A stretch of DNA of 64,000 nucleotides, from contig CAZBLE010000001.1 in assembly GCA_964492735.1 (NCBI GenBank), forward strand, positions 13,218 to 77,217. The letters are read 5' to 3'. This stretch comes from an uncultured Gammaproteobacteria bacterium (lineage in GTDB: Bacteria > Patescibacteriota > Patescibacteriia > UBA9570 > XYC2-FULL-38-9). This document shows positions 25,990 to 58,060 of the stretch, piece by piece (the first letter of the stretch is position 1; each line of letters begins with the position of its first letter). The notes under the pieces are model-generated. The model saw only the letters and a list, made by a program, of their open reading frames with translations. It was not told the origin of the DNA and made no database searches. A program made the translations under genes and the position numbers.

Positions 25990-26022
25990 GTAAAAATGAG
26001 ATTTCTACACCTGCATTAGCGC
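25990..26022 (-). terminator. Hairpin terminator downstream of high-GC lipoprotein gene 26039..26392
   Basis: GCAGGTGTA-13 nt loop-TACACCTGC, followed on the minus strand by a T-rich run. Confidence 0.5.
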
Positions 26023-26038
26023 GTCTCGTATATGACGA

Positions 26039-26392
26039 CTAGCAGGAGCCGACCTGCAGCCAATAGGAACTGGGCCTATTGACCATCGAGCAATACCAAG
26101 AGCCGCGCCACTCAACCCACATGTAGAGGCGGTGGAAAACGCAGTTGGTGCTGCCAGAGTAGTACAGATAGCAGCTGCCTCGAGGCATGCCGCCGCCCAT
26201 GAACTCGTCGGTGTCGGAGATGCTGCCAGTGTCAGAGGGTTCGTTGACCTCGGACTGCTCCAGACTGACCTCCGGGTACAGGACCGGGTCGTGCTGTTCC
26301 GTACAACCACCGGTGAAGGCGGTGAGAACGAAGGTGAGCAGCAGGTACATGACCTGCCACTTGAGGATGATACGCGACATGGCGCGCTCCAT
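26039..26392 (-). CDS. Small high-GC Cys-rich secreted lipoprotein-like protein (variable cargo 1 of the conserved 5' module)
   Basis: N-terminal 32 aa (MERAMSRIILKWQVMYLLLTFVLTAFTGGCTE) are identical to those of gene 43326..44024; the rest is unrelated. About 60% GC. Confidence 0.6.
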   Translation of the reverse strand: MERAMSRIILKWQVMYLLLTFVLTAFTGGCTEQHDPVLYPEVSLEQSEVNEPSDTGSISDTDEFMGGGMPRGSCYLYYSGSTNCVFHRLYMWVEWRGSWYCSMVNRPSSYWLQVGSC

Positions 26393-26642
26393 TGTACTGC
26401 TCGCTGCGGGTTGTTGCTGGGCTTCGAGTGACGAAACAACAGCAGGTGCAACGAGTCTGAACGAATCTCTTCGCCAGAAGGAAAGGCGCGAGGGTGGACC
26501 CGGGCTTCTTTCTGGAAAGTGATTCGCTGATATTGTGAATGAACTATAGAAGAATCATACGCAAGCCTTCTTGCTTTTGTATATGGCGAAAAAACGCCGT
26601 CTGGGGAAAACTCAAAAAACCCTAAACATTAGATAAAAAAAT
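26299..26642 (-). repeat. Conserved 5' module, copy 1 (promoter-proximal -10 region, ~240-nt 5'UTR and the first ~32 codons)
   Basis: About 344 bp, about 99% identical to 43931..44272 (one substitution and one A-run indel). Weaker similarity continues to about 26690. Confidence 0.9.
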
Positions 26643-26680
26643 CACGTGCGCTGTCAAAAAATCGCCAGAATCGACTTATT

Positions 26681-43325: not shown

Positions 43326-44024
43326 CTACCGCATCTGCTTGAGCTGCATGTGCGCCATGTAGGAATCGAGGGACTTCGGCCAACAGGCATAGACACTGTG
43401 CTGTCCGTTGCCGTCGTTCTTGTAGATCTCGACGCCGTAGTGACCCTCCCAGGCCCAGAGGTAGAGGCGAGGCCACCAGTGGGAGGAGTAAGCCTTCAGC
43501 TTGGACTGCTGCCCACGGTAGTCACGGTTCATCCAGAAGCTAACCACCCAATCATCGTTGCCGCACTGTGCCGGCTTCGTGTAGAAGTAGCAGTTGGGCG
43601 ACCAGATGTTGGAGTAGTTTGTTCCTGAATCATAAGGCACTTCACCGAAGCCAATGATGCGACCATCCTTGTAGTGACAGTCCGGCAGGAAGGTCGGCGG
43701 CGGAGCCTTCTGTCCGTCCATGTTGATGATCGTGTCATCGGGATCATCGTGAGGAATACCGAAGTACTCGATCGCGTCGATAAGATCCTGACGCTCCTCA
43801 GCACTCATGCCCTCGACGACCGTGAAGTCATCGACCTTGAGCTGCTCAACGATCTGAACCACCTCGTCGTAGGTCCAGCCGCGGAACTCCTCGGCCTGCT
43901 CAAACGCCTGGCTGTCGATGCTCGACTCCTCCGTACAACCACCGGTGAAGGCGGTGAGGACGAAGGTGAGCAGCAGGTACATGACCTGCCACTTGAGGAT
44001 GATACGCGACATGGCGCGCTCCAT
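43326..44024 (-). CDS. High-GC secreted lipoprotein-like protein (variable cargo 2 of the conserved 5' module)
   Basis: N-terminal 32 aa identical to gene 26039..26392. The mature part (Trp/Tyr-rich, ...WWPRLYLWAWEGHYGVEIYKNDGNG...) is unrelated to it. About 60% GC. Confidence 0.65.
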   Translation of the reverse strand: MERAMSRIILKWQVMYLLLTFVLTAFTGGCTEESSIDSQAFEQAEEFRGWTYDEVVQIVEQLKVDDFTVVEGMSAEERQDLIDAIEYFGIPHDDPDDTIINMDGQKAPPPTFLPDCHYKDGRIIGFGEVPYDSGTNYSNIWSPNCYFYTKPAQCGNDDWVVSFWMNRDYRGQQSKLKAYSSHWWPRLYLWAWEGHYGVEIYKNDGNGQHSVYACWPKSLDSYMAHMQLKQMR

Positions 44025-44272
44025 TGTACTGCTCGCTGCGGGTTGTTGCTGGGCTTCGAGTGACGAAACAACAGCAGGTGCAACGAGTCTGAACGAATCT
44101 CTTCGCCAGAAGGAAAGGCGCGAGGGTGGACCCGGGCTTCTTTCTGGAAAGTGATTCGCTGATATTGTGAATGAACTATAGAAGAATCATACGCAAGCCT
44201 TCTTGCTTTTGTATATGGCGAAAAAACGCCGTCTGGGGAAAACTCAAAAAACCCTAAACATTAGATAAAAAA
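43931..44272 (-). repeat. Conserved 5' module, copy 2
   Basis: About 99% identical to 26299..26642. Sequence further upstream (putative -35 region) diverges between the copies. Confidence 0.9.
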
Positions 44273-44334
44273 TCAATGGCTCATTTTAAAAAGTCGCCAG
44301 AATCGGGGTATTTTGCTACTGTTGTCTATATTGT

Positions 44335-46700: not shown

Positions 46701-46997
46701 TTAGAAAAAAGGTGGATAAATAACACCAAATTGAATCAGCGCAAAAAGAACCCCGATTTGCAGGGCAATAATCACAATCAGCGGCAATTGAAATGAGAGC
46801 TTTTTTGTTTTATGTCGAAATTGATTCATGGCGAGCAAAGCTCCAATAGACCCACCGATCAGTGCCAAAAACCACAAGGTTTTTTCCGGGGTACGCCAGC
46901 GGTGTGAATTCGCTTGCGCCTTATCAAGGCCATACGCCAAAAATGTCACAGCGTTGATGATTATGATATAGCCAATAACAATTTGCTCAATAGTCAT
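46701..46997 (-). CDS. DUF1294-domain membrane protein
   Basis: ...YGLDKAQANSHRWRTPEKTLWFLALIGGSIGALLAMNQFRHKTKK... is the DUF1294 signature. Confidence 0.65.
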   Translation of the reverse strand: MTIEQIVIGYIIIINAVTFLAYGLDKAQANSHRWRTPEKTLWFLALIGGSIGALLAMNQFRHKTKKLSFQLPLIVIIALQIGVLFALIQFGVIYPPFF

Positions 46998-48400
46998 ACT
47001 TTTTTTGAGGGAAATAATTCTTCACGCCAGCGACCAGCTTGCATCATATCAAGTGCATCGTTAATGGAATGCGTATGTATATATCGTTGCAATCGGACAT
47101 ACAATCCTGGAGCAAATGCCTCATTGATAGCACGCAGTAGTGCCTTTGTGTGAACTGGCGATGAAACAGTTGTTACTGATTCTTGTCGTGTGTTTTCTGT
47201 ATAGGCTTTCAAAAATAATTCTTCCGGAATCACTTTTTTGAATACTGCGTATAACCCTGTCTCTTCTTTGTGATTTTGATTCAGGGCAATATCTTCAGGA
47301 AATAGCGCATTGTGAATATCTACTGTTATCGCTTCATTTAACCATTCTAAGTCTCGGTTTGGTGTTCCAATAAATGACAAGCCTTCTTTTGTCGACAAGT
47401 AATCTATAACCGCACCTGCCTCAGCTAATGGATCATAAATCAAACCTTCTGGCCCAAACATTTCTGGGTCACTACTTGCCATATCCTCAGTGATCATGCG
47501 ATCAATTTCCACACTATTCTCAACACTGCCGGAAATACGCACAAATGGCCGCTGTCCAGATATGACAGCATGAACCAATTCATGCATCACTGTACTTTTT
47601 TCTTCTTCTAAGGCTCGTGCGCGTGATGGTTCTGTGTCATCAGAAATACCAAGCAACATCGGATTTAAGAAAATCATAATTCTATCTTGATATTGTTGAT
47701 ACGCACCAAAACACATGGTATCACTCAATGGAGCACGCATGAGATCCCCACTATCAAACACCAAAAACTGCAAACGCTCTGCAATCAGCTGTTCGTCAAT
47801 ATCGAGTTGATGTTCACGAACATACGCAACAGCTCGGTTTTGAAATTCTTCCATGTATTGAATAACGCGCTCTTGAAAACGTGCATGTTCAACAGCTATT
47901 TGATCAGCATGTGTAGTCAAAGTCAGCTCTTGTAAATCTTGAGGTAATTGAGCAAAATCATTTTGCATAATCCGTGCGATAGATTGTGGTGAAGCTTTTG
48001 GATCTTTTAACCAGCTTTGCACTACTGGATGTTGCCGCACTTCTTGCGAGCGTAATACGGATAAGAAAAAATTGAACACCAAACTATAATGCTCAGAATA
48101 TTTCCTGCTATTCACTGCATCTATCAAATGTTGAATTTCAGAAAAAATACCTTTATTCAGTACCTCTATCAATAATTCTACACCCTCTACCCTCTCGTTA
48201 GAGGCAGTCTGTAATTGAGCTTTTAATTGCTCAATGTTTTTATGTAAACTTGGAATTGAAGCGCCCAGTATATTATCAGCATACTTTGCTCCATCACGCT
48301 CTGCAATATTCTGCTCTTGTAATAACTCTCGATTACCCTGATACGCGGGATGATCAATTCCAATCGGCTTTTGCTTACGATAACTGTATTCAGTGGACAT
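46994..48400 (-). CDS. Hypothetical protein with an HExxH (zincin-like) motif
   Basis: 468 aa with VMHELVHAV and no signal peptide. 4-nt overlap with the DUF1294 gene. Confidence 0.45.
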   Translation of the reverse strand: MSTEYSYRKQKPIGIDHPAYQGNRELLQEQNIAERDGAKYADNILGASIPSLHKNIEQLKAQLQTASNERVEGVELLIEVLNKGIFSEIQHLIDAVNSRKYSEHYSLVFNFFLSVLRSQEVRQHPVVQSWLKDPKASPQSIARIMQNDFAQLPQDLQELTLTTHADQIAVEHARFQERVIQYMEEFQNRAVAYVREHQLDIDEQLIAERLQFLVFDSGDLMRAPLSDTMCFGAYQQYQDRIMIFLNPMLLGISDDTEPSRARALEEEKSTVMHELVHAVISGQRPFVRISGSVENSVEIDRMITEDMASSDPEMFGPEGLIYDPLAEAGAVIDYLSTKEGLSFIGTPNRDLEWLNEAITVDIHNALFPEDIALNQNHKEETGLYAVFKKVIPEELFLKAYTENTRQESVTTVSSPVHTKALLRAINEAFAPGLYVRLQRYIHTHSINDALDMMQAGRWREELFPSKKV

Positions 48401-48447
48401 GCCTATAGTATAGCAAATATATAGAAGTACTTAAATTATTATGAGAG

Positions 48448-48957
48448 TTGTGTTACGCTCAAGGCATGTTTAAAAGATCATGCGCACACGCTCAATTTAC
48501 GCCCCACCCTATTCCACGCATTGCGAATATTGGAACGAACCTCGGCACTGAATACACCATTGGTCATTGCGCGAAATGCAATGCTCCATTGATTGATGCC
48601 TATGTTGTAGCAACAAACACTCACACAATCACCCCGGTTGATCCACTGGTGATTGAAGGAGCCCTGCAGCAATATGACACGGCAACACGAAATGCGTATG
48701 TAACTGATTGTCTCAATCAAGAATTATCACTCCCGGAATTGGTGCAAAAATATCAGATCTTTCAAGTTGGTGATGTTGTGTACGTTGACTCATGGGATGA
48801 GCTTGTTGGAGGCACGGCGACTATTTCCGGCATCAAAGACGGGATGCTGACATTTATTGATCTCCCTGGATTAGAATATTCCAGCAAAGAACTCTTTGAA
48901 CACCAAGCAGCGCTCCGCGCACATTTCGGCGAACAAAAAGCCCAGTATCAATATTAG
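48448..48957 (+). CDS. Hypothetical protein
   Basis: 169 aa ORF translationally coupled to the next gene (stop/start overlap at 48957). Confidence 0.4.
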   Translation: MCYAQGMFKRSCAHAQFTPHPIPRIANIGTNLGTEYTIGHCAKCNAPLIDAYVVATNTHTITPVDPLVIEGALQQYDTATRNAYVTDCLNQELSLPELVQKYQIFQVGDVVYVDSWDELVGGTATISGIKDGMLTFIDLPGLEYSSKELFEHQAALRAHFGEQKAQYQY

Positions 48958-49781
48958 TGATATTAGACAAAATTGGAGAGACTTATTATCATAGGGCAAT
49001 GAAAGAGCCTGGATTTACACCACAACGACCCACCCAAGAACAACATCGTGAGGGTCATTGGAGCTATGAAGAGCTAAAACGTCGTATTGTTGACACCTAT
49101 ACAGATGGCGAAGGAAATTTGATTCCATTTTCAGAACTCCCAAAAAGCGTAGATATTGGAATTATGGGAACAAAGACACTAGAATGTGTCCGACGTATGA
49201 ATGAAGATCCAGAACACCGAGAACATGGCATGTCGATTGTCTATGACCCCGGCAATCGCAGATTGTTGATACAGAAGGATGATAAAATAACCGTTGGTGA
49301 AAAAAGAGAGATCGCCAATAAACAGACACTATTTCGAACGGGAACGGGTGAAATTTCAGCACTTGCCGGACATATTCATACACACCCAACAATGGATCCA
49401 TTTAGCTTTAAAGATATACTCTCGTTGTTATTTGGAATAAAAATCCGCATCAGAGATACAAAAATCTATCAACCAATGCATCTTTCTATTCTCGGAAATG
49501 TGGATGGCTCTCTTAGTTTATTATTCGCTGGACGTGAGAGTATAGGAAGAGGAGATATTTCCGAGGAATTGATCAAAGCTAAGTATTATGAGCTTGTCAA
49601 GAAGCGTCTGGAGACAATACCAAAAAAACAAAAAATGGGACTCGCGGCAGACTACGCTATTATCGATGCCAGTCATGTGGCTATTGCACAGCTTGCCGAA
49701 GAATTTGGCCTCGGCTATTATCGCGGTAATGAGTCAGGTATCTTGCGACGCTTTCGCGTGAAAAAACCCGCGCAAGAATAA
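48957..49781 (+). CDS. Hypothetical protein with a JAB/MPN-like HxH...S..D motif
   Basis: GHIHTHPTMDPFSFKD approximates the JAMM metalloprotease motif HxHx7Sx2D (spacing off by one). Tentative. Confidence 0.35.
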   Translation: MILDKIGETYYHRAMKEPGFTPQRPTQEQHREGHWSYEELKRRIVDTYTDGEGNLIPFSELPKSVDIGIMGTKTLECVRRMNEDPEHREHGMSIVYDPGNRRLLIQKDDKITVGEKREIANKQTLFRTGTGEISALAGHIHTHPTMDPFSFKDILSLLFGIKIRIRDTKIYQPMHLSILGNVDGSLSLLFAGRESIGRGDISEELIKAKYYELVKKRLETIPKKQKMGLAADYAIIDASHVAIAQLAEEFGLGYYRGNESGILRRFRVKKPAQE

Positions 49782-49853
49782 CTACTCCTCCCCTTCAAAC
49801 TCCTCCATCTCTTTCAGCAGTTTTTTGAATTTGCGAGATGGGTATTGTAGGTG
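49782..49853 (-). repeat. Duplicated dnaJ 3' end, direct repeat copy A (remnant of the last ~23 codons plus a stop)
   Basis: The reverse complement encodes ...YPSRKFKKLLKEMEEFEGEE* ; about 94% identical to the dnaJ terminus at 51178..51249. Confidence 0.8.
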
Positions 49854-49891
49854 TAATAAAAACTAATCACAGTATAGAAAAAAACAGCTGT

Positions 49892-51163
49892 CTATTCTTG
49901 CAATAGATCACTCACAGATGCAGGTAAAGTCTGCGACCAAATCTCTGGATCTTTTGTATAGACCATTGCATCAACACCAAGCTGACTCTTGAATACTGCA
50001 AGTTGTCGCTCCCGGCTCAGATGACGCAAGCCCGGCAATGCGGACAAGCGATCACCATGAATCGAAGCCATGGAACCCAGTCCGAGATCACGAATAATAC
50101 CGGCATATTGTGTGCGTATATTTTTTGCACGATCTGTCATGCCAAGACTCTCAATCACAGATGCAACCAGTGTGACTGTTGACAGTGAAATGATGCCAGC
50201 AAATGGATCAGCCGAATCCTCTTTGCGTTGCCCCTGCATCGCTTGTAACAACTCTGGCGGAACAACTGTTGTGATGTATCCAGTATTTTTGCGGTGTCCA
50301 TCATCTCTCTGCACAATCTCGGTCGCCGCAGAGACAACAACTTCTGCACTTCCAATCCCAAAAGCTCGAAAACGTGAATTCTGTGGCAATACACTTTCAA
50401 CGAGTGCTGACCCTGTCGCATCATAACTCATGAATGGAACAATTCCACCATTCCACATCAACGGTATGTGTGGCATTGCTTTATACAGCTCTATCAAAAT
50501 CGCTGGCGATATTGCAGAAAATGCAATGGACTCTTGAACATCTTGTGTTTCAATATATTTTTGTAACGCACGAACGTGGTCTTGATATTGCGCAGGATTA
50601 GCGCCAAGAGATTTTATTTCAATAATTAAACGATGAGCGTCTTTGTAACGATCAAACTTTTTCAATAACGATTCGAGCGTCAATTGCTGTGGTCGCGCTG
50701 CCTCAATCTGCTCTGGGTCCAATGTATCAATATACGCCTGCCGCGCAAAGAGACCTGAGCCGGACAGAGCTATTGTTGGATCATGTTGTACCCATGGTGT
50801 TCCGGATTTATCAAATCGTACGTCTAATTCTTGTGCCCATCTACCAGCAGCAAAAGCCGTATCGAACGCATGAGCGTCAAAGTGATGTCGATGATCAATT
50901 AAGCCAAATTGCTCTTGAGTTGCGCGTGACCGCTCAACGATATCAAGAGCCGCTTGTATTCTTTCAAACGAGTCGACAATCATGTCTGAAACCTCACCAG
51001 AAAAATACCCAGCTTCGACAATGGCGTCGAGGCGAGACAACGCATCAATCAATTCCGGGCGCTGTTGATATGCTTCAGCTAGTGTTAACAAGTGTGTATC
51101 CTCGGGTGAAACACCAGGAATACGGTCAATGCTCTTTTTTGCTGAAAATGATAGTTCGGTCAT
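49892..51163 (-). CDS. Glycerophosphodiester phosphodiesterase (GDPD)-family protein with an N-terminal extension
   Basis: ...IDHRHHFDAHAFDTAFAAGRWAQELDVRFDKSGTPWVQHDPTI... matches the GDPD HR...E.D(V/I)..T.DG..V..HD block. It is flanked by the dnaJ-3' direct repeats. Confidence 0.55.
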   Translation of the reverse strand: MTELSFSAKKSIDRIPGVSPEDTHLLTLAEAYQQRPELIDALSRLDAIVEAGYFSGEVSDMIVDSFERIQAALDIVERSRATQEQFGLIDHRHHFDAHAFDTAFAAGRWAQELDVRFDKSGTPWVQHDPTIALSGSGLFARQAYIDTLDPEQIEAARPQQLTLESLLKKFDRYKDAHRLIIEIKSLGANPAQYQDHVRALQKYIETQDVQESIAFSAISPAILIELYKAMPHIPLMWNGGIVPFMSYDATGSALVESVLPQNSRFRAFGIGSAEVVVSAATEIVQRDDGHRKNTGYITTVVPPELLQAMQGQRKEDSADPFAGIISLSTVTLVASVIESLGMTDRAKNIRTQYAGIIRDLGLGSMASIHGDRLSALPGLRHLSRERQLAVFKSQLGVDAMVYTKDPEIWSQTLPASVSDLLQE

Positions 51164-51177
51164 CGTATCATTATTCG

Positions 51178-52290
51178 TTATTCCTCCCCTTCAAACTCCT
51201 CCATCTCTTTGAGGAGTTTTTTGAATTTGCGAGATGGGTATTGTGGGACATGAATATTCACTTTCACAAGATGGTCACCACGACCGTGTCCGTGCAACCG
51301 TTGAATGCCTTTTCCACGCAGTCGCAAAATCGTTCCGGCGGTTGTTCCGGCTGGAATTTTTAGATCAACCAATCCGTCCAGTGTTTCAACTTCAATACGA
51401 CCACCGAGGACAGCAGTTGGATATGACACCAACTCTTCCACAACCACATCATCACCTTGGCGTTGAAAATTTTCATGGGACTTCACATGGACCACGACAT
51501 ATAAATCACCGGCTGGTCCACCAAATTGCCCAGCCTCACCTTGGCCGCTCATTCGCATGGTTTGTCCATCTTCAATACCGGCTGGAATATTCAACTCAAG
51601 GGTGGTGTTCTTTTTTTCAATCCCGTTTCCACGACACGTTTTGCACGGTGTCTTCACTGTTTTGCCGCGACCATTACAACTTGAACAGGCAACTTGCGTT
51701 CGAATTTGCCCGAAGACGCTGCGCTGAATCTGGTCAACCACGCCTGAACCTTTACAGGTGTCGCAGGCTTCAATTGGCGTTCCTGGCTCTGCGCCGTTTC
51801 CAGAACAGTGTGAACAGGTCGCCCCTTTATACAGCTCCACTTCTTTTTTGACGCCAAAGGCTGCTTCTTTGAAATCAATCGTCGTGTCCATTTGAATATC
51901 TTGGCCACGCTGCTGCGCGCTCGCACCGCCACGTCTGCGTCCACCGCCAAACAAATCACCAAAAATATCGCCGAGATCAAACTCCACGCCTTGGCCGCCG
52001 AAACCGCCTTGGCCTCCAGCTTGGCGCATAATATCTTCCCAATTCATGCCAGCGCCGCCGCCGAAACCGCCTTGGCCATTCACACCCGCTTCTCCAAATT
52101 GGTCGTAGGCGCTGCGTTTTTGCTTATCTGAAAGGACTTGATACGCCTCATTCACCTCTTTGAATTTCGCTTCATCGCCACCGTCTTTGTCAGGGTGATA
52201 TTTGTGCGCAGCTTTCCGAAACGCCTTTTTAATCTCATCTTCTGAGGCGGTTTTTGAAACTCCTAAAATATTGTAATAATCTTTTGCCAT
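51178..52290 (-). CDS. dnaJ: Molecular chaperone DnaJ
   Basis: J-domain with HPD (KYHPDKD), G/F-rich region and four CxxCxGxG zinc-finger repeats. The last 23 codons make up direct repeat copy B. Confidence 0.9.
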   Translation of the reverse strand: MAKDYYNILGVSKTASEDEIKKAFRKAAHKYHPDKDGGDEAKFKEVNEAYQVLSDKQKRSAYDQFGEAGVNGQGGFGGGAGMNWEDIMRQAGGQGGFGGQGVEFDLGDIFGDLFGGGRRRGGASAQQRGQDIQMDTTIDFKEAAFGVKKEVELYKGATCSHCSGNGAEPGTPIEACDTCKGSGVVDQIQRSVFGQIRTQVACSSCNGRGKTVKTPCKTCRGNGIEKKNTTLELNIPAGIEDGQTMRMSGQGEAGQFGGPAGDLYVVVHVKSHENFQRQGDDVVVEELVSYPTAVLGGRIEVETLDGLVDLKIPAGTTAGTILRLRGKGIQRLHGHGRGDHLVKVNIHVPQYPSRKFKKLLKEMEEFEGEE

Positions 52291-52296
52291 ATCTTC

Positions 52297-52638
52297 TTAT
52301 ACTGTATTAGTTTTTCGCAGTCGTTGCACTATATAAAGAATTCCCCAAACTGGCAATGACCAGATAAATGCGGAAAAAAGAACGAAGGCAGCTAATCCAA
52401 GGACTTGATACACTACTCCTCCAAATCCATAAACACTGGTTAGATATGGATCAACCATAAATGCCCACGCGATTGCTGGGAATGTTATAAACAGCATTGC
52501 TCGAGAAAAAAAAGTTTCACCATTAAATAGATCTTGTCCAAATACATACGACAAAAATAGCACCACGATAAACACCAAGACCCACACGAGATATGTCAGG
52601 ATATATGGATTGACTAGTTTTGTAAGGAAAGATTTCAT
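52297..52638 (-). CDS. Small 3-4-TM membrane protein, paralog 3 of a tandem triplet
   Basis: 113 aa; shares MKxFLxKLVNxYxLTYL...WSLPVWGI motifs with the two upstream genes. Confidence 0.55.
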   Translation of the reverse strand: MKSFLTKLVNPYILTYLVWVLVFIVVLFLSYVFGQDLFNGETFFSRAMLFITFPAIAWAFMVDPYLTSVYGFGGVVYQVLGLAAFVLFSAFIWSLPVWGILYIVQRLRKTNTV

Positions 52639-52647
52639 GAGTGTCTG

Positions 52648-52974
52648 TTATTTATTCTTACTTTTTATTGCATGGATAATTCCCCAAACCGGAAGTGACC
52701 AAACCAATGAACTAAAAACAGTGACGCTCAATGCTTCTTGCGTAAGGTGGACAACGGCAGCATCTTGAAACATACGCTCAATAGCAAATCCGATTACAAA
52801 AAAATATGCGATCGCGGGTATCTCAAAAACCATAAACACCCGATAAATAATATCATTGTCGTATGTTGCTCGTTGTAAGAGCACAATGATAATTGAAAAC
52901 ACAAAGAAAATCAGAAACGTGATGACGTATGGATTTTTGAGCGTCTTGATCATTTTTTGAAAAGTCGTATTCAT
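52648..52974 (-). CDS. Small membrane protein, paralog 2 of the tandem triplet
   Basis: 108 aa; conserved WSLPVWGII block. Confidence 0.55.
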   Translation of the reverse strand: MNTTFQKMIKTLKNPYVITFLIFFVFSIIIVLLQRATYDNDIIYRVFMVFEIPAIAYFFVIGFAIERMFQDAAVVHLTQEALSVTVFSSLVWSLPVWGIIHAIKSKNK

Positions 52975-52983
52975 AGGTGTCTG

Positions 52984-53325
52984 TTATTTTTTATTACTGC
53001 GTTTCCAAGGATTGATTTGCGCAACAAATAACATCCCCCAAATCGGAAGTGACCAAGTAAGTGCTGAAAAAAATGTTGCTAGCACAATACCAATAAGTTG
53101 ATACCACACTGTATTGGAAAACCCTGACATGTATATATCTAATGGCATTGCCAAAAATATTCCGGGCAGCAATATTAACACCAGCGCATTTCCAAATAAA
53201 CTATCTGGGGGCGCATTTTGCCCATCTAATAATTGAGCTAAAAGCACTGCACTCACACACACCAAAAATAATATAAGATACGTTAGCGTATATCGATTGA
53301 CGAGTTTTATAAGGAAAGGTTTCAT
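52984..53325 (-). CDS. Small membrane protein, paralog 1 of the tandem triplet
   Basis: 113 aa; conserved WSLPIWGML block. Confidence 0.55.
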   Translation of the reverse strand: MKPFLIKLVNRYTLTYLILFLVCVSAVLLAQLLDGQNAPPDSLFGNALVLILLPGIFLAMPLDIYMSGFSNTVWYQLIGIVLATFFSALTWSLPIWGMLFVAQINPWKRSNKK

Positions 53326-53356
53326 AGGTGTGTATTATGATTGTTTATTGGCTTGC

Positions 53357-53438
53357 GGGGAAGTAGCTCTCAAAACCCCGTTCGCTTCGCTCTCTGGCAG
53401 CAGAGCTGCTAATTGGTTTTGAGTAGCCACTTTCCCCT
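53357..53438. repeat. Inverted repeat element, copy L; it is itself a long imperfect hairpin
   Basis: GGGGAAGTAGCTCTCAAAACC...GGTTTTGAGTAGCCACTTTCCCC. Its core is about 91% identical to the reverse complement of 54597..54662. Confidence 0.8.
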
Positions 53439-53479
53439 CCGTCTTTACATGTTATTTTTCGCTTTTCGGTAAGTCATGG

Positions 53480-54007
53480 TTATTTTTTTGGCTCAATGCC
53501 TAACTCTAATAAAATACAATCCGCTGAACCTACTTTATTATCCTCCAATTTACATTCAACTTTTTTTATAGAATTGAGTAATTGATTATATTGCACGCCG
53601 TCGATTTTGAGATATTGTGTCTCATCTATTTTAACGGGAACAATCACTTGCCATATTCCAATCATTAAAGCAATTAACGAAATAAAAATAGCGATTAAAG
53701 AGTATTTTTTAGCATCTTGTGCATTTACTCGCGCTAATTTTAATTCATCATATTCAATTAATTTAAAATACCCCTCAAAAGAAATTGCATATCTCCAATC
53801 CAGCATTGGTTTATTCGGATATTGAGTAAGGATTTCCACAACTTCTCGCCTGTCAAATACACTGATTAAATAATTTTCCCATTCTGGAAATTTTTCTAAT
53901 GCTTCTTTTTGTGTAAAACCTGATTTTTGAGACACACAATACCGAAGAAACTGAATCTGAAAATCATTATCGTCGAGGAACTCCTTTGTTCTTTTTCGGT
54001 AGGTCAT
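53480..54007 (-). CDS. Hypothetical cassette protein with a central TM helix
   Basis: 175 aa; about 33% GC; 4-nt overlap with the upstream cassette gene. Confidence 0.5.
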   Translation of the reverse strand: MTYRKRTKEFLDDNDFQIQFLRYCVSQKSGFTQKEALEKFPEWENYLISVFDRREVVEILTQYPNKPMLDWRYAISFEGYFKLIEYDELKLARVNAQDAKKYSLIAIFISLIALMIGIWQVIVPVKIDETQYLKIDGVQYNQLLNSIKKVECKLEDNKVGSADCILLELGIEPKK

Positions 54008-54522
54008 TTTATTTCGGATATTTTTCTTGGAATCTTAATTTTTCCTTTTTGATAAAAATGAAAACTGTACTTATTTAATAATTTCATGGCTTGAAATAAA
54101 TCTTTCGTGTCTCGATTAATTTTTTCTAAAGATGTACTACCTGAGTATTTATCAGCGGTTCCAAATTCAGTATGTGTTTCAGAAAACATAGCCTTTGAAG
54201 CAAGCGTCCAAAACTTTTTATTTACAGTACTATGAACATGATCATTTCGTGTGTTTATAATTTTCTGTAAAGAAGTAATTAATTCATGATTTTTTGGATA
54301 AAACTTTGCAAGATATTTAATTATTTCTTTAGTACTGTGTCCTTGAAGATTGGTTTTTTTATAGTTACGAGCATTTAAATCTTTTATAATCAACTTTTCT
54401 ATTCTAACGTTAATATCATCAGCATGTTCTTTAATACTACTAATAAAAATATTAAAAAACACTTGATAAATAAAATGTGCTTCTAAAAATTCATTTAAAT
54501 TCTGATACTCTTCTTCGTCCAT
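54004..54522 (-). CDS. Hypothetical all-alpha cassette protein; possible HEPN-like Rx4H motif
   Basis: 172 aa. ...INTRNDHVHST... fits the Rx4-6H motif of HEPN domains. Speculative. Confidence 0.45.
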   Translation of the reverse strand: MDEEEYQNLNEFLEAHFIYQVFFNIFISSIKEHADDINVRIEKLIIKDLNARNYKKTNLQGHSTKEIIKYLAKFYPKNHELITSLQKIINTRNDHVHSTVNKKFWTLASKAMFSETHTEFGTADKYSGSTSLEKINRDTKDLFQAMKLLNKYSFHFYQKGKIKIPRKISEIK

Positions 54523-54587
54523 TTAATCGATTATAAGGATATTGACTAAAAATAAAACTAAAAAACTTATATATTTTGTGCGGTGTA

Positions 54588-54670
54588 AGGTGTGGTGTCT
54601 ACTCAAAACCAATTAGCGGCTCTGCCGCCAGCGAGCGAACGCGAGCGGGGTTTTGAGAGACACGCACACC
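54588..54670. repeat. Inverted repeat element, copy R; long hairpin, inverted relative to copy L
   Basis: GGTGTGGTGTCTACTCAAAACC...GGTTTTGAGAGACACGCACACC. Lies 18 nt downstream of the dnaK stop. Confidence 0.8.
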
Positions 54671-54688
54671 TGAAACCATTACACGATG

Positions 54689-56605
54689 TTATTTCTTTTC
54701 TTCGTCTGTCTTCTCTTCAAAATCTGCATCAACAACATCTTCTTTCTTGGCTTCACCTTCAGCTCCGCCTTCTGCTCCAGCAGCTTTTTCTTCTTCCGCT
54801 GCTTTATACAAAATCTCGCCAATCTTTTGCGCTGCTTCAGAGAGCGCTTGAGATGCTGTGTCGATTGCTTCTTTTTCTGACTTGTCGTCTGCAAGCACTT
54901 TCTTCAAGGCTTCCGCTTTTTCCTCAATCGCTTTTTTATCTTCTTCTGGAACTTTGTCGCCAGCATCTTTCACAGCTTTTTCTGTTGAATAGAGCAAGCT
55001 TTCAGCAATGTTGCGCGCTTCGATCAATTCTTTTTTCGCGCGATCTTCATCAGCATGCGCTTCAGCATCTTGTTTCATCTTTTCGATTTCCGCATCTGAC
55101 AAACCGCTGGACGCTTCAATGCGAATAGATTGTTCTTTGCCTGACGCCTTATCAACCGCTTTCACATTCAAGATACCGTTGGCATCAACATCAAAGGTGA
55201 CTTCCACTTGTGGCACGCCACGTGGAGCTGGTGGAATACCGGACAAAATAAATCGTCCGAGTGATTTATTGTCTGCCGCCATTTCACGTTCCCCTTGTGT
55301 GACATGCACTTCAACTTGTGTTTGATTGTCTGCCGCAGTTGAGAAAATTTGTGACTTACTACTTGGAATAGTTGTATTACTTTCAATCAACTTTGTTGCA
55401 ACGCCGCCCAATGTTTCAATTCCGAGGCTGAGAGGGATCACATCCAAAAGCAAAATATCTTTCACATCTTTTTGCAGAACGCCAGCTTGCACAGCAGCAC
55501 CGAGCGCGACCACTTCATCTGGATTCACTGTTGCGTTTGGTTTTTTACCGAAGAACTCTTCCACTTTTGATTGGATTAGTGGCATTCGAGTTTGTCCACC
55601 AACCAAAATAATTTCATTGATCGCTCCCTTATCAACACCTGCAATCTTCAAGGCTTCACGCACTGGTTCGAAGGTGCGAGCAACCAAGTCACTCACCAAT
55701 TCTTCGAGTTTCGCACGAGTCACTTTCATCACCAAATGTTTTGGTCCAGTACTTGGATCGTTGGCGATAAATGGTTCGTTGATTTCTGTGTCAGCTGCTG
55801 ATGACAATTCAATCTTGGCTTTTTCTGCTGCTGATTTCAAGCGTTGCAATGCAAGATTGTCTTGTTTCAAATCAATGCCTTCTTGTTTTTTGAATTCATC
55901 AACAATGTGATTGATTAAGACTTGGTCAAAATCGTCACCACCCAAATGCGTGTCACCATGCGTTGATTTCACTTCAACGGTATCTTCTGATACTTCAAGG
56001 ACAGAAACATCGAATGTGCCGCCACCCAAATCGTATACCAAGATTTTTTCATCTTTCTTTTTATCAAAACCATACGCAAGGGCCGCTGCTGTTGGTTCAT
56101 TGATAATGCGCTTTACATCAAGACCTGCAATTTTTCCGGCATCTTTTGTTGCTTGGCGTTGTGAATCATCAAAATACGCAGGAACAGTAATCACTGCTTC
56201 AGTGATTGTTTCACCGAGCTTTTCTTCTGCATCCGCTTTCAATTTCATCAAAATTTTTGCAGAAATTTCTTGTGGAGTGTATTGCTTTTCTCCCATTTTC
56301 ACCATCACGCGTTCACCGTCTTTGACGATTTCGTATGGCATCAATGACAAATCTTTTTGCACTTCTGCGTCTTCAAACCGGCGACCAATCAAACGCTTCA
56401 CACTAAAGATTGTGTTTTTCGCATTTGTCACGGCTTGGCGTTTTGCACCAACCCCGACTAAAATTTCACCAGTTTTTGTTTCCGCAACAATTGATGGAGT
56501 TGTGCGGTTGCCTTCATTGTTTTCGATCACCTTCGCCGCGCCGCCTTCAAAAATCGCGACACACGAGTTGGTGGTTCCGAGATCGATTCCGAGAATTTTA
56601 CTCAT
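54689..56605 (-). CDS. dnaK: Molecular chaperone DnaK (Hsp70)
   Basis: [34 protein letters not shown] and an EEVD-less acidic C-terminus; 638 aa. Confidence 0.95.
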
Positions 56606-56761
56606 ATATATAATTATTATTAGTTATTTATTGAATGTAAGACTTTCAGATTTGAGTGAAGTTCGAGGAAAAAGTGAGGAGCGTACCGAGGCGTAGGCTG
56701 CCTACGTCGAGGGAGCACCGGAGCTTTTGACAAAGAAATTCACCAAATATGGAAGTCGTAA

Positions 56762-57286
56762 TTATTTAACAACTTTGACTCGCGCCACTTGGATGACTTT
56801 CCCGTTGAGAGTAAATCCAGTGGACACTTCTTCTGCGACTGTACCGGATTTCTGCTTTCCGTCGCCGTCCACTTCTTCGACTGCTTCATGCATTGTGGCG
56901 TCAAACGGTTTTCCGACAGCTGCAATCGGCTCTGCTCCATGCGCTTTTAAAATGTTCATGAAGTTTTGCTGAATGTATTCAATGCCCTTCGCCCACGCAT
57001 TGTCGCGATCCTCTGGCGGAATGCCAGCGAGCGCATATTTGAAATGGTCGACCATCGGCAAGAGCTCTTGGAGGAATTGTTCAGTCGCAAACTTGTTAAT
57101 GTGCTGCAGGCGTTGCTGCGTGTCTTTTTGAAGGTTTTGGTAATCGGCTTGTGACCGCTTCCAGCCTTCTAAGTATTCTGCCGCGCGCTCGGCATCAGTT
57201 TTTTCTTCTGGTGTTGCCTCTTCTGTTTCTGGTGTTTCCGGCGGCGCGTGTTCTTGTTCGTCTTGTGGTGTGTCATTTTTTGTCAT
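56762..57286 (-). CDS. grpE: Nucleotide exchange factor GrpE
   Basis: Coiled-coil N-terminus and a conserved C-terminal beta-domain; sits between hrcA and dnaK. Confidence 0.8.
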   Translation of the reverse strand: MTKNDTPQDEQEHAPPETPETEEATPEEKTDAERAAEYLEGWKRSQADYQNLQKDTQQRLQHINKFATEQFLQELLPMVDHFKYALAGIPPEDRDNAWAKGIEYIQQNFMNILKAHGAEPIAAVGKPFDATMHEAVEEVDGDGKQKSGTVAEEVSTGFTLNGKVIQVARVKVVK

Positions 57287-58011
57287 AAGCGTTTTTGTTG
57301 CTGATTCATAAATTGTTCGAGTGCCTGCAGAATGTTGATGTTGCGGTTATAATCCATCCGCATTGGCCCAAGAATGCCGAAGACCGACTGTCTTCCATCT
57401 TGGTCATATTCAGCAACGATCATGGCGCAATGACGTGACACTGGATTTTTATCTCCAATAAACACCTCAATGTCTTTTTCCATTTTCGATCGCGCGGAAT
57501 CCAAGACACTTTCCATGTCATCAAACATATCAGACACTTCCAGCATCATTTCACGACCATCCACAAATTCTGGCTTGCGGAGCATATTGGCGATTCCAGT
57601 ATAATAAAATTCTTCGCCATCAATACTCATCACGACCATCTCGTCAGTGAGTGACGAAATCGCGCGTGCCATTTGTTTCGCGGTTTGCACGGCGCTGTCT
57701 GGGGCGCTGGTTGCTGCTTCAGACAGTTCGTGATGCTGCCGCTTGGTGAGTGATCGTTTGTGCAGAAAATTGGTAATATAATATTGATACCCCATTTCTG
57801 TTGGGATTCGGCCGGCGGATGTATGCGGCTGCTCAATGTAGCCACCTGTTTCCAGCTCTGCCAAATCGTTACGCAATGTCGCTGGTGAGACGCCAAAGTC
57901 ATGGTCATCAAACAGCTGTTTTGAGCTGACCGGTTTTGCGGTTGCGATATATTGCTCGACAACGGCTTGCAAAATCGATTCTAAACGCTCTGTATTGCCT
58001 AATTGGGTCAT
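57283..58011 (-). CDS. hrcA: Heat-inducible transcription repressor HrcA (short form)
   Basis: N-terminal wHTH (...PVSSKQLFDDHDFGVSPATLRNDLAELE...). 4-nt overlap with grpE. CIRCE lies immediately upstream. Confidence 0.8.
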   Translation of the reverse strand: MTQLGNTERLESILQAVVEQYIATAKPVSSKQLFDDHDFGVSPATLRNDLAELETGGYIEQPHTSAGRIPTEMGYQYYITNFLHKRSLTKRQHHELSEAATSAPDSAVQTAKQMARAISSLTDEMVVMSIDGEEFYYTGIANMLRKPEFVDGREMMLEVSDMFDDMESVLDSARSKMEKDIEVFIGDKNPVSRHCAMIVAEYDQDGRQSVFGILGPMRMDYNRNINILQALEQFMNQQQKRL

Positions 58012-58021
58012 ATATTTTGAA

Positions 58022-58048
58022 TTAGCAGTCTCTTGGTGAGAGTGCTAA
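58022..58048. promoter_or_regulatory. CIRCE operator (HrcA binding site)
   Basis: TTAGCAGTC-N9-GAGTGCTAA against the consensus TTAGCACTC-N9-GAGTGCTAA (1 mismatch), 11-37 nt upstream of the hrcA start. Confidence 0.8.
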
Positions 58049-58060
58049 TTCAGTATGCCA

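Follow-up and report, generated by a model that had tools for sequence, protein, structure and literature searches.

A probable single-gene insertion carrying a GDPD-like gene at the 3′-end of dnaJ in an uncultured Kerfeldbacteria-like bacterium

We observed that the last codons of dnaJ are present twice in the window (the whole 64,000-nt stretch of DNA analysed here, from an uncultured Kerfeldbacteria-like bacterium), once on either side of a single gene for a GDPD-like protein. The region 49782–51249 is probably a 1,396-bp single-gene accessory cassette, made of the GDPD-like gene (the cargo) and one dnaJ tail, that entered at the dnaJ 3′-end by a Campbell-type event. Since the same site is empty in close relatives, this small insertion at the end of dnaJ appears to be real and horizontally exchanged. 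The features of the locus are as follows; L002 is the close relative used in most of the comparisons.

51178..52290, minus strand: dnaJ, 370 aa, the target gene, recognized by its translation and by synteny with Kerfeldbacteria loci
51178..51249, minus strand: tail copy B (attL-like), comprising the final 23 codons and the TAA stop of dnaJ, the copy in use by dnaJ
51164..51177, minus strand: 14-nt spacer that separates the dnaJ stop from the start of the cargo, with the mini-ORF ATG-xxx-CGA-TGA
49892..51163, minus strand: cargo gene, 423 aa, predicted divergent GDPD fold (PLC-like phosphodiesterase TIM barrel)
49854..49891, minus strand: 38-nt spacer of the module, separating the orphan tail from the cargo stop, 95% identical to L002 (35/37)
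49782..49853, minus strand: orphan tail copy A (attR-like), a copy of the dnaJ 3′-end with a TAG stop and no start codon
46994..49781: lineage-specific block with ORFs 48957..49781 (plus strand, 274 aa), 48448..48957 (plus strand, 169 aa) and 46994..48400 (minus strand, 468 aa)
46701..46997, minus strand: DUF1294 gene, conserved right-hand flank (Pfam DUF1294, E-value 8e-26)
attL junction: dnaJ body - tail - CGAATAATGATACGATG
attR junction: ..TTTTTATTACAC - tail - TTATTCTTGCG

The target, dnaJ, is the final conserved gene of an hrcA-grpE-dnaK-...-dnaJ cluster; the Pfam domains DnaJ, DnaJ_CXXCXGXG and DnaJ_C were available, precomputed, for an identical protein (P0046). Gene content of the dnaK–dnaJ spacer varies among relatives. 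Paralogous small genes adjoin dnaJ at 52297–53325, a sign that local duplication happens here.

The original prediction, made from the sequence of the window, was that att-like repeats duplicating the dnaJ 3′-end bracket a gene of the GDPD family. The repeats were confirmed by a repeat finder and by alignment: the direct repeat pair 49783–49851 / 51179–51247 is 69 nt long with four mismatches (65/69 identical, 94%), has a start-to-start spacing of 1396 nt, ends on its right edge exactly at the stop codon and brackets one 423-aa gene. Sub-blocks of the repeat, of 26 and 23 nt, are confined to the two tail sites in the 64-kb window, and 100 shuffles gave 0 matches. Copy B is the genuine dnaJ terminus, as predicted, being the end of the 370-aa ORF 51178..52290. 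For copy A the predicted stop and four substitutions were found, while the number of residues identical to DnaJ is 21 rather than the 23 claimed. The translation of copy A ends in ..HLQYPSRKFKKLLKEMEEFEGEE*, with 21 residues and the stop as in DnaJ; on their flanks the next residue is L, not P, and the preceding one is H, not V. Silent changes account for three of the four substitutions (CTC CTC -> CTG CTG, GAA -> GAG, TAA -> TAG), and the non-silent one, P -> L, is located at the repeat boundary. An in-frame stop codon lies 5 codons upstream of copy A. Its TAG (49782–49784) abuts the TAA (49779–49781) of the convergent ORF 48957..49781, again in agreement with the prediction. Counted from mismatch positions, the longest exact run common to both copies is ∼30 nt.

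A perfect 9-bp inverted repeat, AAACTCCTC-N9-GAGGAGTTT, lies in the dnaJ tail. A further inverted repeat of 9 nt, with GCAAGAATA located at the stop of the cargo and TATTCTTGC after the orphan, is not kept in L002 and was treated as a chance occurrence. The RNA fold of the tail was no better than that of shuffles (z from −1.0 to −1.25), the tail had no Rfam matches and no terminator-like sites were found at the locus; a role of the tail as an RNA or as a terminator was rejected. Tandem accretion of tails was rejected as well, given that in the window and in L002 no candidate for a third, degenerate tail on the distal side of the variable blocks rose above shuffle level.

Scans of genomes and metagenomes with DnaJ produced one close relative, L002, and the empty sites were found through a listing of the 90% DnaJ cluster. 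The compared sources were SRR12487046 (L001), DRR236214 (L166) and SRR6231170 (L002), together with assemblies including GCA_964632705.1 and GCA_964608475.1; every sequence is a metagenome assembly (a MAG or a Logan contig), and L166 may be a strain chimera. The module is present in three lineages, those of the window, L166 and L002, with identical architecture in the latter two. An empty site, to be expected in relatives if an insertion had occurred, was observed in L168 (GCA_964632705.1) and in L167, each unoccupied and with a single tail. In L168 the tail continues, within ∼8 nt, into the sequence found past the orphan tail of L002, while upstream of the tail the two differ, with dnaJ body in L168 versus the cargo 3′ spacer in L002. 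L167 has one dnaJ tail and no GDPD-like gene after it (a scaffold gap of 10 Ns is present ∼235 nt past its dnaJ). In the four-way attL/attB alignment divergence starts immediately past the stop codon. Empty-site and occupied relatives differ by precisely one tail plus cargo.

The distribution of occupied and empty sites is patchy. Identities in the dnaJ body are 89.5% for the window and L168, 88.2% for L002 and L167 and 86.3% for the window and L002; thus, by this measure, the occupied genomes are not mutual closest relatives. The empty alleles carry private tail codons, TCA or CAG, where every occupied tail has GAG, which argues against their being products of recent deletion in any of the occupied alleles sampled. 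The orphan copy A resembles the real dnaJ tail of unoccupied L167 in sequence and in its TAG stop. Variable positions are arranged as a mosaic among the four tail copies, TAC/TAT being common to copies within a genome and TAA/TAG being common to orthologous copies between genomes; a single simple crossover does not explain this pattern, which needs gene conversion or different crossover points. No further duplications of the dnaJ tail were seen in 157 other dnaJ loci (79 + 78), and nothing thus points to a larger family of elements with this site as their target.

We compared divergence of the module with that of its surroundings. Between the window and L002 the dS value is 0.14 for the cargo, as against 0.69 for the dnaJ body and 0.67 and 0.60 for other core genes; at four-fold sites 22 of 190 positions differ in the cargo versus 201 of 512 in four core genes (Fisher p 2e-13). 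At synonymous sites the module thus appears to be ∼5 times younger than the flanking dnaJ and the other core genes. For the same pair a maximum-likelihood change point in third-position divergence was placed at 51265/51262 (2-lnL interval 51373–51161, delta lnL 32), i.e. at the left edge of the repeat, and tail copy B falls within the low-divergence block. The 38-nt spacer and the orphan tail together are ∼10% different, a value that matches the four-fold rate of the cargo and is far under core neutral divergence; the spacer, therefore, belongs to the young block. The differences seen in the orphan copies are nearly all silent, as expected of a recently working dnaJ end, and, along with the ∼10% divergence, this suggests that the orphan copies are young. 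In the comparison of the window with L166 the low-divergence block begins ∼35 nt upstream of the repeat, which favours, at least there, ordinary homologous recombination in dnaJ over a precise site-specific crossover.

With empty sites on the one hand and a dS ∼5 times below that of core genes on the other, sequence comparison presents the cassette as a presence/absence polymorphism among close lineages, one that appears to have passed between them after they diverged. The original prediction had named relatives with the same gene order and both repeat copies as evidence against an insertion; such relatives do exist (L002 and L166). Still, the insertion reading stands, because other relatives are empty and the divergence of the module is discordant with that of its flanks.

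The same observations bear on the possibility, also raised at the outset, that the second tail was left over from a tandem duplication affecting the 3′ region of dnaJ and has nothing to do with the arrival of the GDPD-like gene. Tandem duplication can create direct repeats of a gene end, and the small paralogues mentioned above show that the region does duplicate locally. However, only the 69–72-nt tail is doubled, with no second cargo copy in any locus and no further dnaJ sequence. Such a history needs a doubling of the tail plus cargo unit and then a loss of the second cargo copy with its breakpoint precisely at the stop codon. Given the empty sites, which differ by just the tail and cargo, and the discordance in age between cargo and dnaJ, we regard this explanation as largely refuted on sequence grounds and very improbable.

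A more serious competitor, though in our view an unlikely one, is that the gene is an old resident. One insertion with tail duplication would have occurred in the common ancestor, L167 and L168 would have lost the gene by tail–tail recombination, and the low divergence between the window and L002 would reflect later replacement of alleles by homologous recombination. Recombination across the 69-bp direct repeats would yield exactly the empty-site structure that we saw. Homologous recombination is frequent at the locus (the window and L168 are 97% identical in hrcA-grpE but 88.5% identical in dnaJ, and L166 is itself mosaic), and the TAC/TAT codons common to both copies of a genome suggest gene conversion between copies. 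Several observations, however, are hard to reconcile with this history. Neutral DNA separated since the split of the core genes (dS 0.6–0.7) would be far more decayed than the orphan tail and the 38-nt spacer, at ∼10% divergence, are. Replacement of alleles needs a right-hand crossover, yet homology stops at the orphan stop codon, and the private codons TCA and CAG of the empty alleles occur in no occupied tail.

It is also conceivable, if highly unlikely, that the arrangement is an assembly artefact, a chimera at strain level joined through 70 nt of common sequence. All sequences come from metagenome assemblies, and several contigs terminate at the dnaJ tail or close to it: L001 begins within dnaJ, the P0166 contig ends 2 nt after it and L168 171 nt after it. 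Against this, the order tail-cargo-orphan-downstream was assembled independently four times (window, L001, L166, L002), in three samples and by different pipelines; moreover, the two copies differ at four sites, and their longest shared run of ∼30 nt is too short to be collapsed in ordinary assemblies.

Returning to the cassette, we infer the act of integration from its products. Entry would have been one reciprocal recombination of Campbell type within approximately the last 23 codons of dnaJ. A separate copy of these codons would have come along with the new DNA, keeping DnaJ full-length (copy B, TAA), and the original end, now displaced, would persist as an orphan that is not translated (copy A, TAG). 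The predicted circle junction is ..TTTTTATTACAC - tail - CGAATAATGATACGATG and the predicted empty site is dnaJ body - tail - TTATTCTTGCG. As the cassette encodes no recombinase, the exchange could have been the work of a site-specific recombinase with its gene at another place, or of homologous recombination by the host on the 69–72 bp of identity, for example once DNA had been taken up and circularised. A length of 69 bp is short for efficient RecA-dependent integration, and 69–72 bp is near the lower limit for RecA-dependent recombination.

Traces of a dedicated recombinase were sought in several ways. No Pfam matches to integrases, recombinases or transposases were found in the cassette or in the 68 window ORFs scanned, and no recombinase was found on the L167 and L168 contigs. 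The absence of an integrase from the enclosed element had been correctly predicted, its sole ORF being the GDPD-like gene, and a recombinase targeting dnaJ, which it had proposed to look for elsewhere on the contig, has no counterpart among those 68 ORFs. The repeat had no match in viral contigs, and a literature search for elements targeting the dnaJ 3′-end returned nothing specific.

One could speculate that the cassette is an element which needs no recombinase of its own, a single gene with its own copy of the last ∼23 codons of an essential and highly conserved chaperone gene. This short identity would serve as a handle for entry into and exit from diverged Patescibacteria chromosomes through host homologous recombination after DNA uptake, with the target restored each time and transcription borrowed from the heat-shock cluster. 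The orphan tail would then act as the right-hand homology arm as well, so that the cassette could be carried into genomes whose downstream DNA is unrelated. We offer this only as a tentative possibility, with the balance of probability against it.

Although similarity of the cargo product to known proteins is low, several lines of evidence characterize it as GDPD-like, as had been predicted. Its score against Pfam GDPD (PF03009) is 21.2 bits, under the threshold of 23.6; at the level of the family 10 of 19 relatives have GDPD matches with E-values up to 0.01 (best 5e-7), and a profile search of PDB sequences produced 1o1z with E-value 5e-8. The AF2 model has a pLDDT of 87.3 and a pTM of 0.89; with this model the top 28 Foldseek matches in PDB were all GDPDs (best E-value 5e-10, probability 1.0), with non-GDPD folds lower down. 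We thus characterize the product, from the modelled structure, as a predicted divergent GDPD-fold phosphodiesterase. It shares with solved GDPDs the TIM-barrel fold and the aligned motifs G..ELD(V)R.D.DG...SH(D) and E.K, residues E112, D114, H127, E182 and K184 being (near-)invariant in the family and aligning to GDPD motifs. It differs from them in being only ∼12–16% identical, in scoring below the gathering score and in having an extra N-terminal helical region of ∼85 aa. The N-terminal HR, which belongs with E..D, H-D and E.K to the catalytic and metal-binding residues of GDPDs, is present in the cargo (DHRHH), but the family consensus reads KRW.

Purifying selection is indicated by a dN/dS of 0.25 against L002, and this, with the confident GDPD fold, identifies the cargo as a real gene. 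Its start is located 14 nt past the dnaJ stop, with no room for a promoter in the spacer, and no promoter-like sites were found on the minus strand in 49500–51400; most likely, then, the cargo would be expressed together with the heat-shock gene cluster, as its final cistron. The TGA of the mini-ORF in this spacer overlaps the ATG of the cargo; the mini-ORF is kept in the window, L166 and L002 and may play a role in translational coupling.

The cargo family is rare. A word-indexed search returned the query protein alone and its profile version one more protein, while an exhaustive HMMER search revealed the family, with 40 representatives in 1.84 billion. Homologues in L162–L165 are located away from dnaJ and have no flanking repeats; therefore, the family is not a marker of a mobile element. 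PHROG and PADLOC had no match to the cargo.

Downstream of the orphan tail, homology between the window and L002 ends exactly after the orphan stop and resumes at ∼47000. The block 46994..49781 is also present in L166, whereas unrelated genes occupy this place in L002/L168 and, again, in L167; the gap between tail and DUF1294 is filled by three unrelated gene sets. We characterized the block as variable filler outside the cassette; Pfam, PHROG and PADLOC had no match in it except HU_inhibitor, far below threshold. With three unrelated gene sets in front of DUF1294 and a variable dnaK–dnaJ spacer, the dnaK–dnaJ neighbourhood does look like the insertion hotspot it was predicted to be. The DUF1294 gene itself, suspected of belonging to an accessory block, turned out to be a conserved flank with orthologues in L002 (5102..5416) and L167 (8861..9145).

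At sequence level the locus is a clean case of a gene gained and lost, with occupied and empty alleles, exact boundaries, a contrast in molecular clock that speaks for transfer between lineages and no element-encoded recombinase. If host recombination through a 70-bp copy of a conserved gene end is the true route, single genes could spread by it with minimal means, and integrase-based island finders would miss such cassettes. If, instead, a recombinase acts in trans, the dnaJ tail with its 9-bp inverted repeat defines its target site. Mobile DNA in the Candidate Phyla Radiation (Patescibacteria) is poorly described, and bacteria of this group, with their tiny genomes, are believed to rely on uptake of DNA and on recombination.

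Among known systems, Campbell-type single crossover, as used with laboratory suicide vectors, gives the same order of target, homology, insert, homology and downstream DNA, is reversible through recombination between the repeats and requires no dedicated recombinase; here it would call for a circle with a dnaJ tail and the cargo. To our knowledge, such integration has rarely been documented as a natural route of gene gain. Integron cassettes likewise consist of one ORF without a detectable promoter and one recombination site, are expressed from an upstream promoter (as predicted here) and have their recombinase outside the cassette. The dnaJ repeat, however, is coding DNA rather than an attC hairpin, the cassette is single with no array and an IntI-type integrase was not found in the window. 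CIMEs (cis-mobilizable elements), which are among the integrase-less, att-flanked remnants of islands, have been described at the 3′-end of fda in Streptococcus thermophilus. They too are bounded by att-type direct repeats where a housekeeping gene ends, lack recombination genes and can in principle be excised or mobilised in trans; they are recognized, though, through related integrase-bearing ICEs that use the same att in the same species, while no such partner was seen here in the window, the relatives' contigs or the 157 other dnaJ loci.

Further parallels are integrative elements at the 3′-ends of protein-coding genes. The element e14 and phage 21 insert in the 3′-end of E. coli icd and bring a replacement end, and Tn5801-like islands target the 3′-end of guaA. 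We know of no cognate integrase for the dnaJ-tail cassette. Similar insertion, at trmE, is described for SGI1 in PMC8409611, and Tn5801-like islands are the subject of PMC4844618. These elements are 10–100 kb long with a tyrosine or serine integrase beside one att site, whereas the dnaJ cassette has 1.4 kb, one gene of metabolic type with no promoter-like site found for it, and no recombinase. What they have in common is attL/attR repeats that duplicate the last codons of the target, an intact ORF, a displaced end with mostly silent changes, a single-copy empty site in relatives and element divergence discordant with the flanks; in these respects the dnaJ cassette is a small variation on known 3′-end insertions.

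The window comes from a Kerfeldbacteria-like bacterium within the Patescibacteria. We observed in the window a direct repeat of 69 nt (49783-49851 and 51179-51247; 65 of 69 nt identical; start-to-start spacing 1396 nt), and its second copy, copy B, is the 3' end of dnaJ, in agreement with the original prediction that the repeats duplicate this gene end. Sub-blocks of 26 and 23 nt are unique to these two places in 64 kb; 100 shuffles gave no match. The elements are as follows (L002 and L166 are loci of relatives).

51178-52290, minus strand: dnaJ (370 aa), copy B being its 3' end
51164-51177 (L002 2517-2529; L166 237-250): three-codon mini-ORF in the spacer between dnaJ and the cargo gene, its TGA overlapping the cargo ATG
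Between the copies: 14-nt spacer, 423-aa ORF 49892-51163 (the cargo) and 38-nt spacer, nothing further

Copy A, the orphan tail, translates as ..HLQYPSRKFKKLLKEMEEFEGEE* and has no start codon. It had been described as encoding the same 23 C-terminal residues plus a stop, with about four substitutions; the stop and the four substitutions stand, but the residues identical to DnaJ number 21. Only one of the four substitutions alters the translation, a P to L replacement at the left edge of the repeat; the other three are silent. The stop codon of copy A (49782-49784) does abut that of the convergent ORF 48957-49781, as had been noted.

In L002 (CALKUP010000007.1; DnaJ 93% identical) dnaJ is likewise followed by the cargo and then the orphan tail, and the locus is collinear with window positions 52638-49781 at 90% identity. 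A third sample gave L166, a Logan contig of 2.2 kb on which the cargo and the two tails are present and the gene downstream is of the window type, and an independent assembly (L001, SRR12487046) has the same structure, with proteins in the region 100% identical to those of the window. That the structure is an assembly artefact is thus highly improbable, since four assemblies, made from three samples, agree on it.

Relatives with identical order and both repeats, which the original prediction had named as counting against insertion, therefore exist (L002 and L166), yet in others the site is empty, as was to be looked for. The 90% DnaJ cluster held three further proteins. In L168 (GCA_964632705.1) dnaJ has a single tail; the DNA located 3' of the orphan tail in L002 recurs there within ∼8 nt of the dnaJ stop and includes the start of an orthologue of the 216-aa gene of L002, while 5' of the tail L168 has the dnaJ body and the L002 orphan has the cargo 3' spacer. 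The two loci relate as attB to attL/attR and differ by exactly one tail plus cargo. In L167 (GCA_964608475.1) dnaJ also has a single tail, with a TAG stop, followed by different DNA and by DUF1294 ∼1.4 kb later; a 10-N scaffold gap lies ∼235 nt after this stop (about 7680), within the variable region. Among 79 dnaJ loci from genomes and 78 from metagenomes, no further tail duplication was detected.

The cargo has diverged far less than its neighbors.

Divergence between the window and L002 (dS by NG86)
Third-codon-position identity: cargo 90.8%; dnaJ 69.3%; other core genes 71-72%
Four-fold sites differing: cargo 22/190; dnaJ body 65/150; other core genes 47/132, 73/195, 16/35
dS: cargo 0.14; dnaJ body 0.69; other core genes 0.67, 0.60
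dN/dS: cargo 0.25; dnaJ body 0.07; other core genes 0.03-0.04

With the four core genes pooled, 201 of 512 four-fold sites differ (Fisher p 2e-13 versus cargo), and the module is younger than its flanks; the dN/dS of 0.25 shows the cargo to be a functional gene. By maximum likelihood, third-position divergence changes at 51265/51262, 6-16 nt from the repeat's left edge (2-lnL interval 51373-51161; delta lnL 32). The 38-nt spacer and orphan tail are only ∼10% diverged, which equals the neutral rate of the cargo and is far below expectation for neutral DNA of core age, and homology between the window and L002 ends exactly after the orphan's TAG. An origin of the orphan tail as a remnant of tandem dnaJ duplication, contradicted both by the empty sites and by this age discordance, is very unlikely. 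An old insertion followed by precise losses and allele replacement deserves somewhat more credit, though it is still improbable, since neither the youth of orphan and spacer nor the missing right-hand homology fits it well.

Judged by dnaJ-body identity (window-L168 89.5%, L002-L167 88.2%, window-L002 86.3%), the occupied genomes are not mutual nearest relatives. Since the two empty alleles have private tail codons (TCA, CAG; GAG in all six occupied-genome tails), they did not arise by recent deletion from the sampled occupied alleles. The stop is TAG in both orphans, as in the working dnaJ of L167, and TAA in both attached tails; this fits an orphan that is the displaced host end and an attached tail brought by the cassette.

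Pfam gave a below-threshold GDPD match for the cargo protein (21.2 bits versus 23.6, E 3.6e-4). Its family is rare: when 1.84 billion representatives were searched exhaustively with HMMER, 40 proteins reached E<=1e-3, the best being 31-39% identical to the cargo protein. We take the cargo to be a predicted, divergent phosphodiesterase of GDPD fold that has an additional helical region at its N-terminus, because Pfam detects GDPD in 10 of 19 family members (PI-PLC-X in 4), the family profile matches solved GDPDs (1o1z at 5e-8, 2pz0 at 4e-7) with ELDvR..DG...sH and E.K motifs aligned, AlphaFold, run with the family alignment, yields a confident model (pLDDT 87.3, pTM 0.89), and Foldseek places only GDPDs among the top 28 PDB matches of this model (3l12 at 5e-10, followed by 7e0v, 4r7o, 2pz0 and others); further down the list there are a few matches to other folds (a beta-glucanase, phage spike domains). 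Homologues in other genomes reside in unrelated housekeeping contexts with neither dnaJ nor flanking repeats around them; therefore, the family itself is no marker of mobile elements. Opposite the cargo and dnaJ tail there are plus-strand ORFs 50689-51363 (224 aa) and 50070-50426 (118 aa), both open in L002 too, probably chance products of low divergence.

The cargo starts 14 nt past the dnaJ stop and no promoter-like site was found on the minus strand, so the cargo should be read through from dnaJ. The mini-ORF, preceded by GGGGAGGAA at the dnaJ tail end, is kept as ATG-xxx-CGA-TGA (xxx = ATA, ATG or ACA) in the window, L166 and L002; this conservation and the overlap with the cargo ATG suggest that it may be a translational coupling device, one also workable in a circular cassette form.

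The gap from the dnaJ or orphan tail to DUF1294 is filled with three mutually unrelated gene sets, one in the window and L166, another in L002 and L168, the third in L167.

Variable gap: window 46994-49781; L002 3912-5104; L167 7447-8860

It runs precisely from the stop codon to the start of DUF1294; the gene sets gave no Pfam match above threshold and no PHROG or PADLOC match. Gene content of the dnaK-dnaJ spacer also varies among the window, L167 and L168. The suggested insertion hotspot around dnaJ is borne out by both observations, but DUF1294, proposed as accessory, turned out to be conserved flank. The 274-aa protein of the window's gap set has an H-x-H...S-x-x-D motif that appears to resemble JAB/MPN. 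Directly upstream of dnaJ there are three tandem small paralogous ORFs (52297-53325; 113, 108 and 113 aa; without a Pfam family above threshold); in this place relatives have two or three small ORFs (L167 5212-6333; L168 4941-5963) with other neighbors, and thus the spacer is fluid. Between dnaK and these paralogues, a 45-nt inverted repeat (91%; 53386-53430 and 54595-54639) encloses a 1.16-kb AT-rich segment (25-32% GC) with ORFs 53480-54007 and 54004-54522. Each arm lies within a ∼90-nt self-complementary element, GGGGAAAGTGGCTACTCAAAACC...GGGGTTTTGAGAGCTACTTCCCC (53344-53450, 54595-54659), present once in L002 (609-715) and without a counterpart in Rfam; an unknown structured RNA, or an operator, may have been duplicated here around a second insertion. 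Elsewhere, a 377-nt direct repeat (26298-26673 and 43930-44305; 97.3% identical, 17.6 kb apart) spans the 5' end and upstream of ORF 43326-44024 and a non-annotated region near 26005-26522.

We found no integrase, recombinase or transposase domains in the cassette, in the 68 window ORFs scanned or in the L167 and L168 contigs. A recombinase acting in trans may move the cassette; the tail has a perfect 9-bp inverted repeat, AAACTCCTC-N9-GAGGAGTTT, which the orphan copies of the window and L166 do not keep intact and which is a mere consequence of codons for K-L-L...E-E-F. We lean towards host homologous recombination, because recombination appears to be frequent. Between the window (54587-58058) and L168 (169-3317), in a comparison that also took in L167 1-3388, identity is 97.3% in hrcA-grpE, 92-95% in dnaK and 88.5% in dnaJ, which indicates frequent homologous exchange among lineages or strain-chimeric assemblies; L166 alternates between window-like and L002-like stretches, its low-divergence block beginning ∼35 nt upstream of the repeat, and variable sites within the tails are likewise mosaic. 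Host recombination could act by Campbell-type integration of a circularised fragment via the 69-72-bp identity, or by double crossover, dnaJ serving as left arm and the tail as right arm.

The initial observation is confirmed, and its reading as an att-like insertion is supported: the dnaJ 3' end bears a small cassette of one gene and no integrase, which is polymorphic and has been passed horizontally between close Kerfeldbacteria-like lineages. The cassette belongs neither to integrase-bearing elements nor to integron cassettes and is at most a candidate CIME; in its working it resembles an island flanked by att sites or an insertion of Campbell type.
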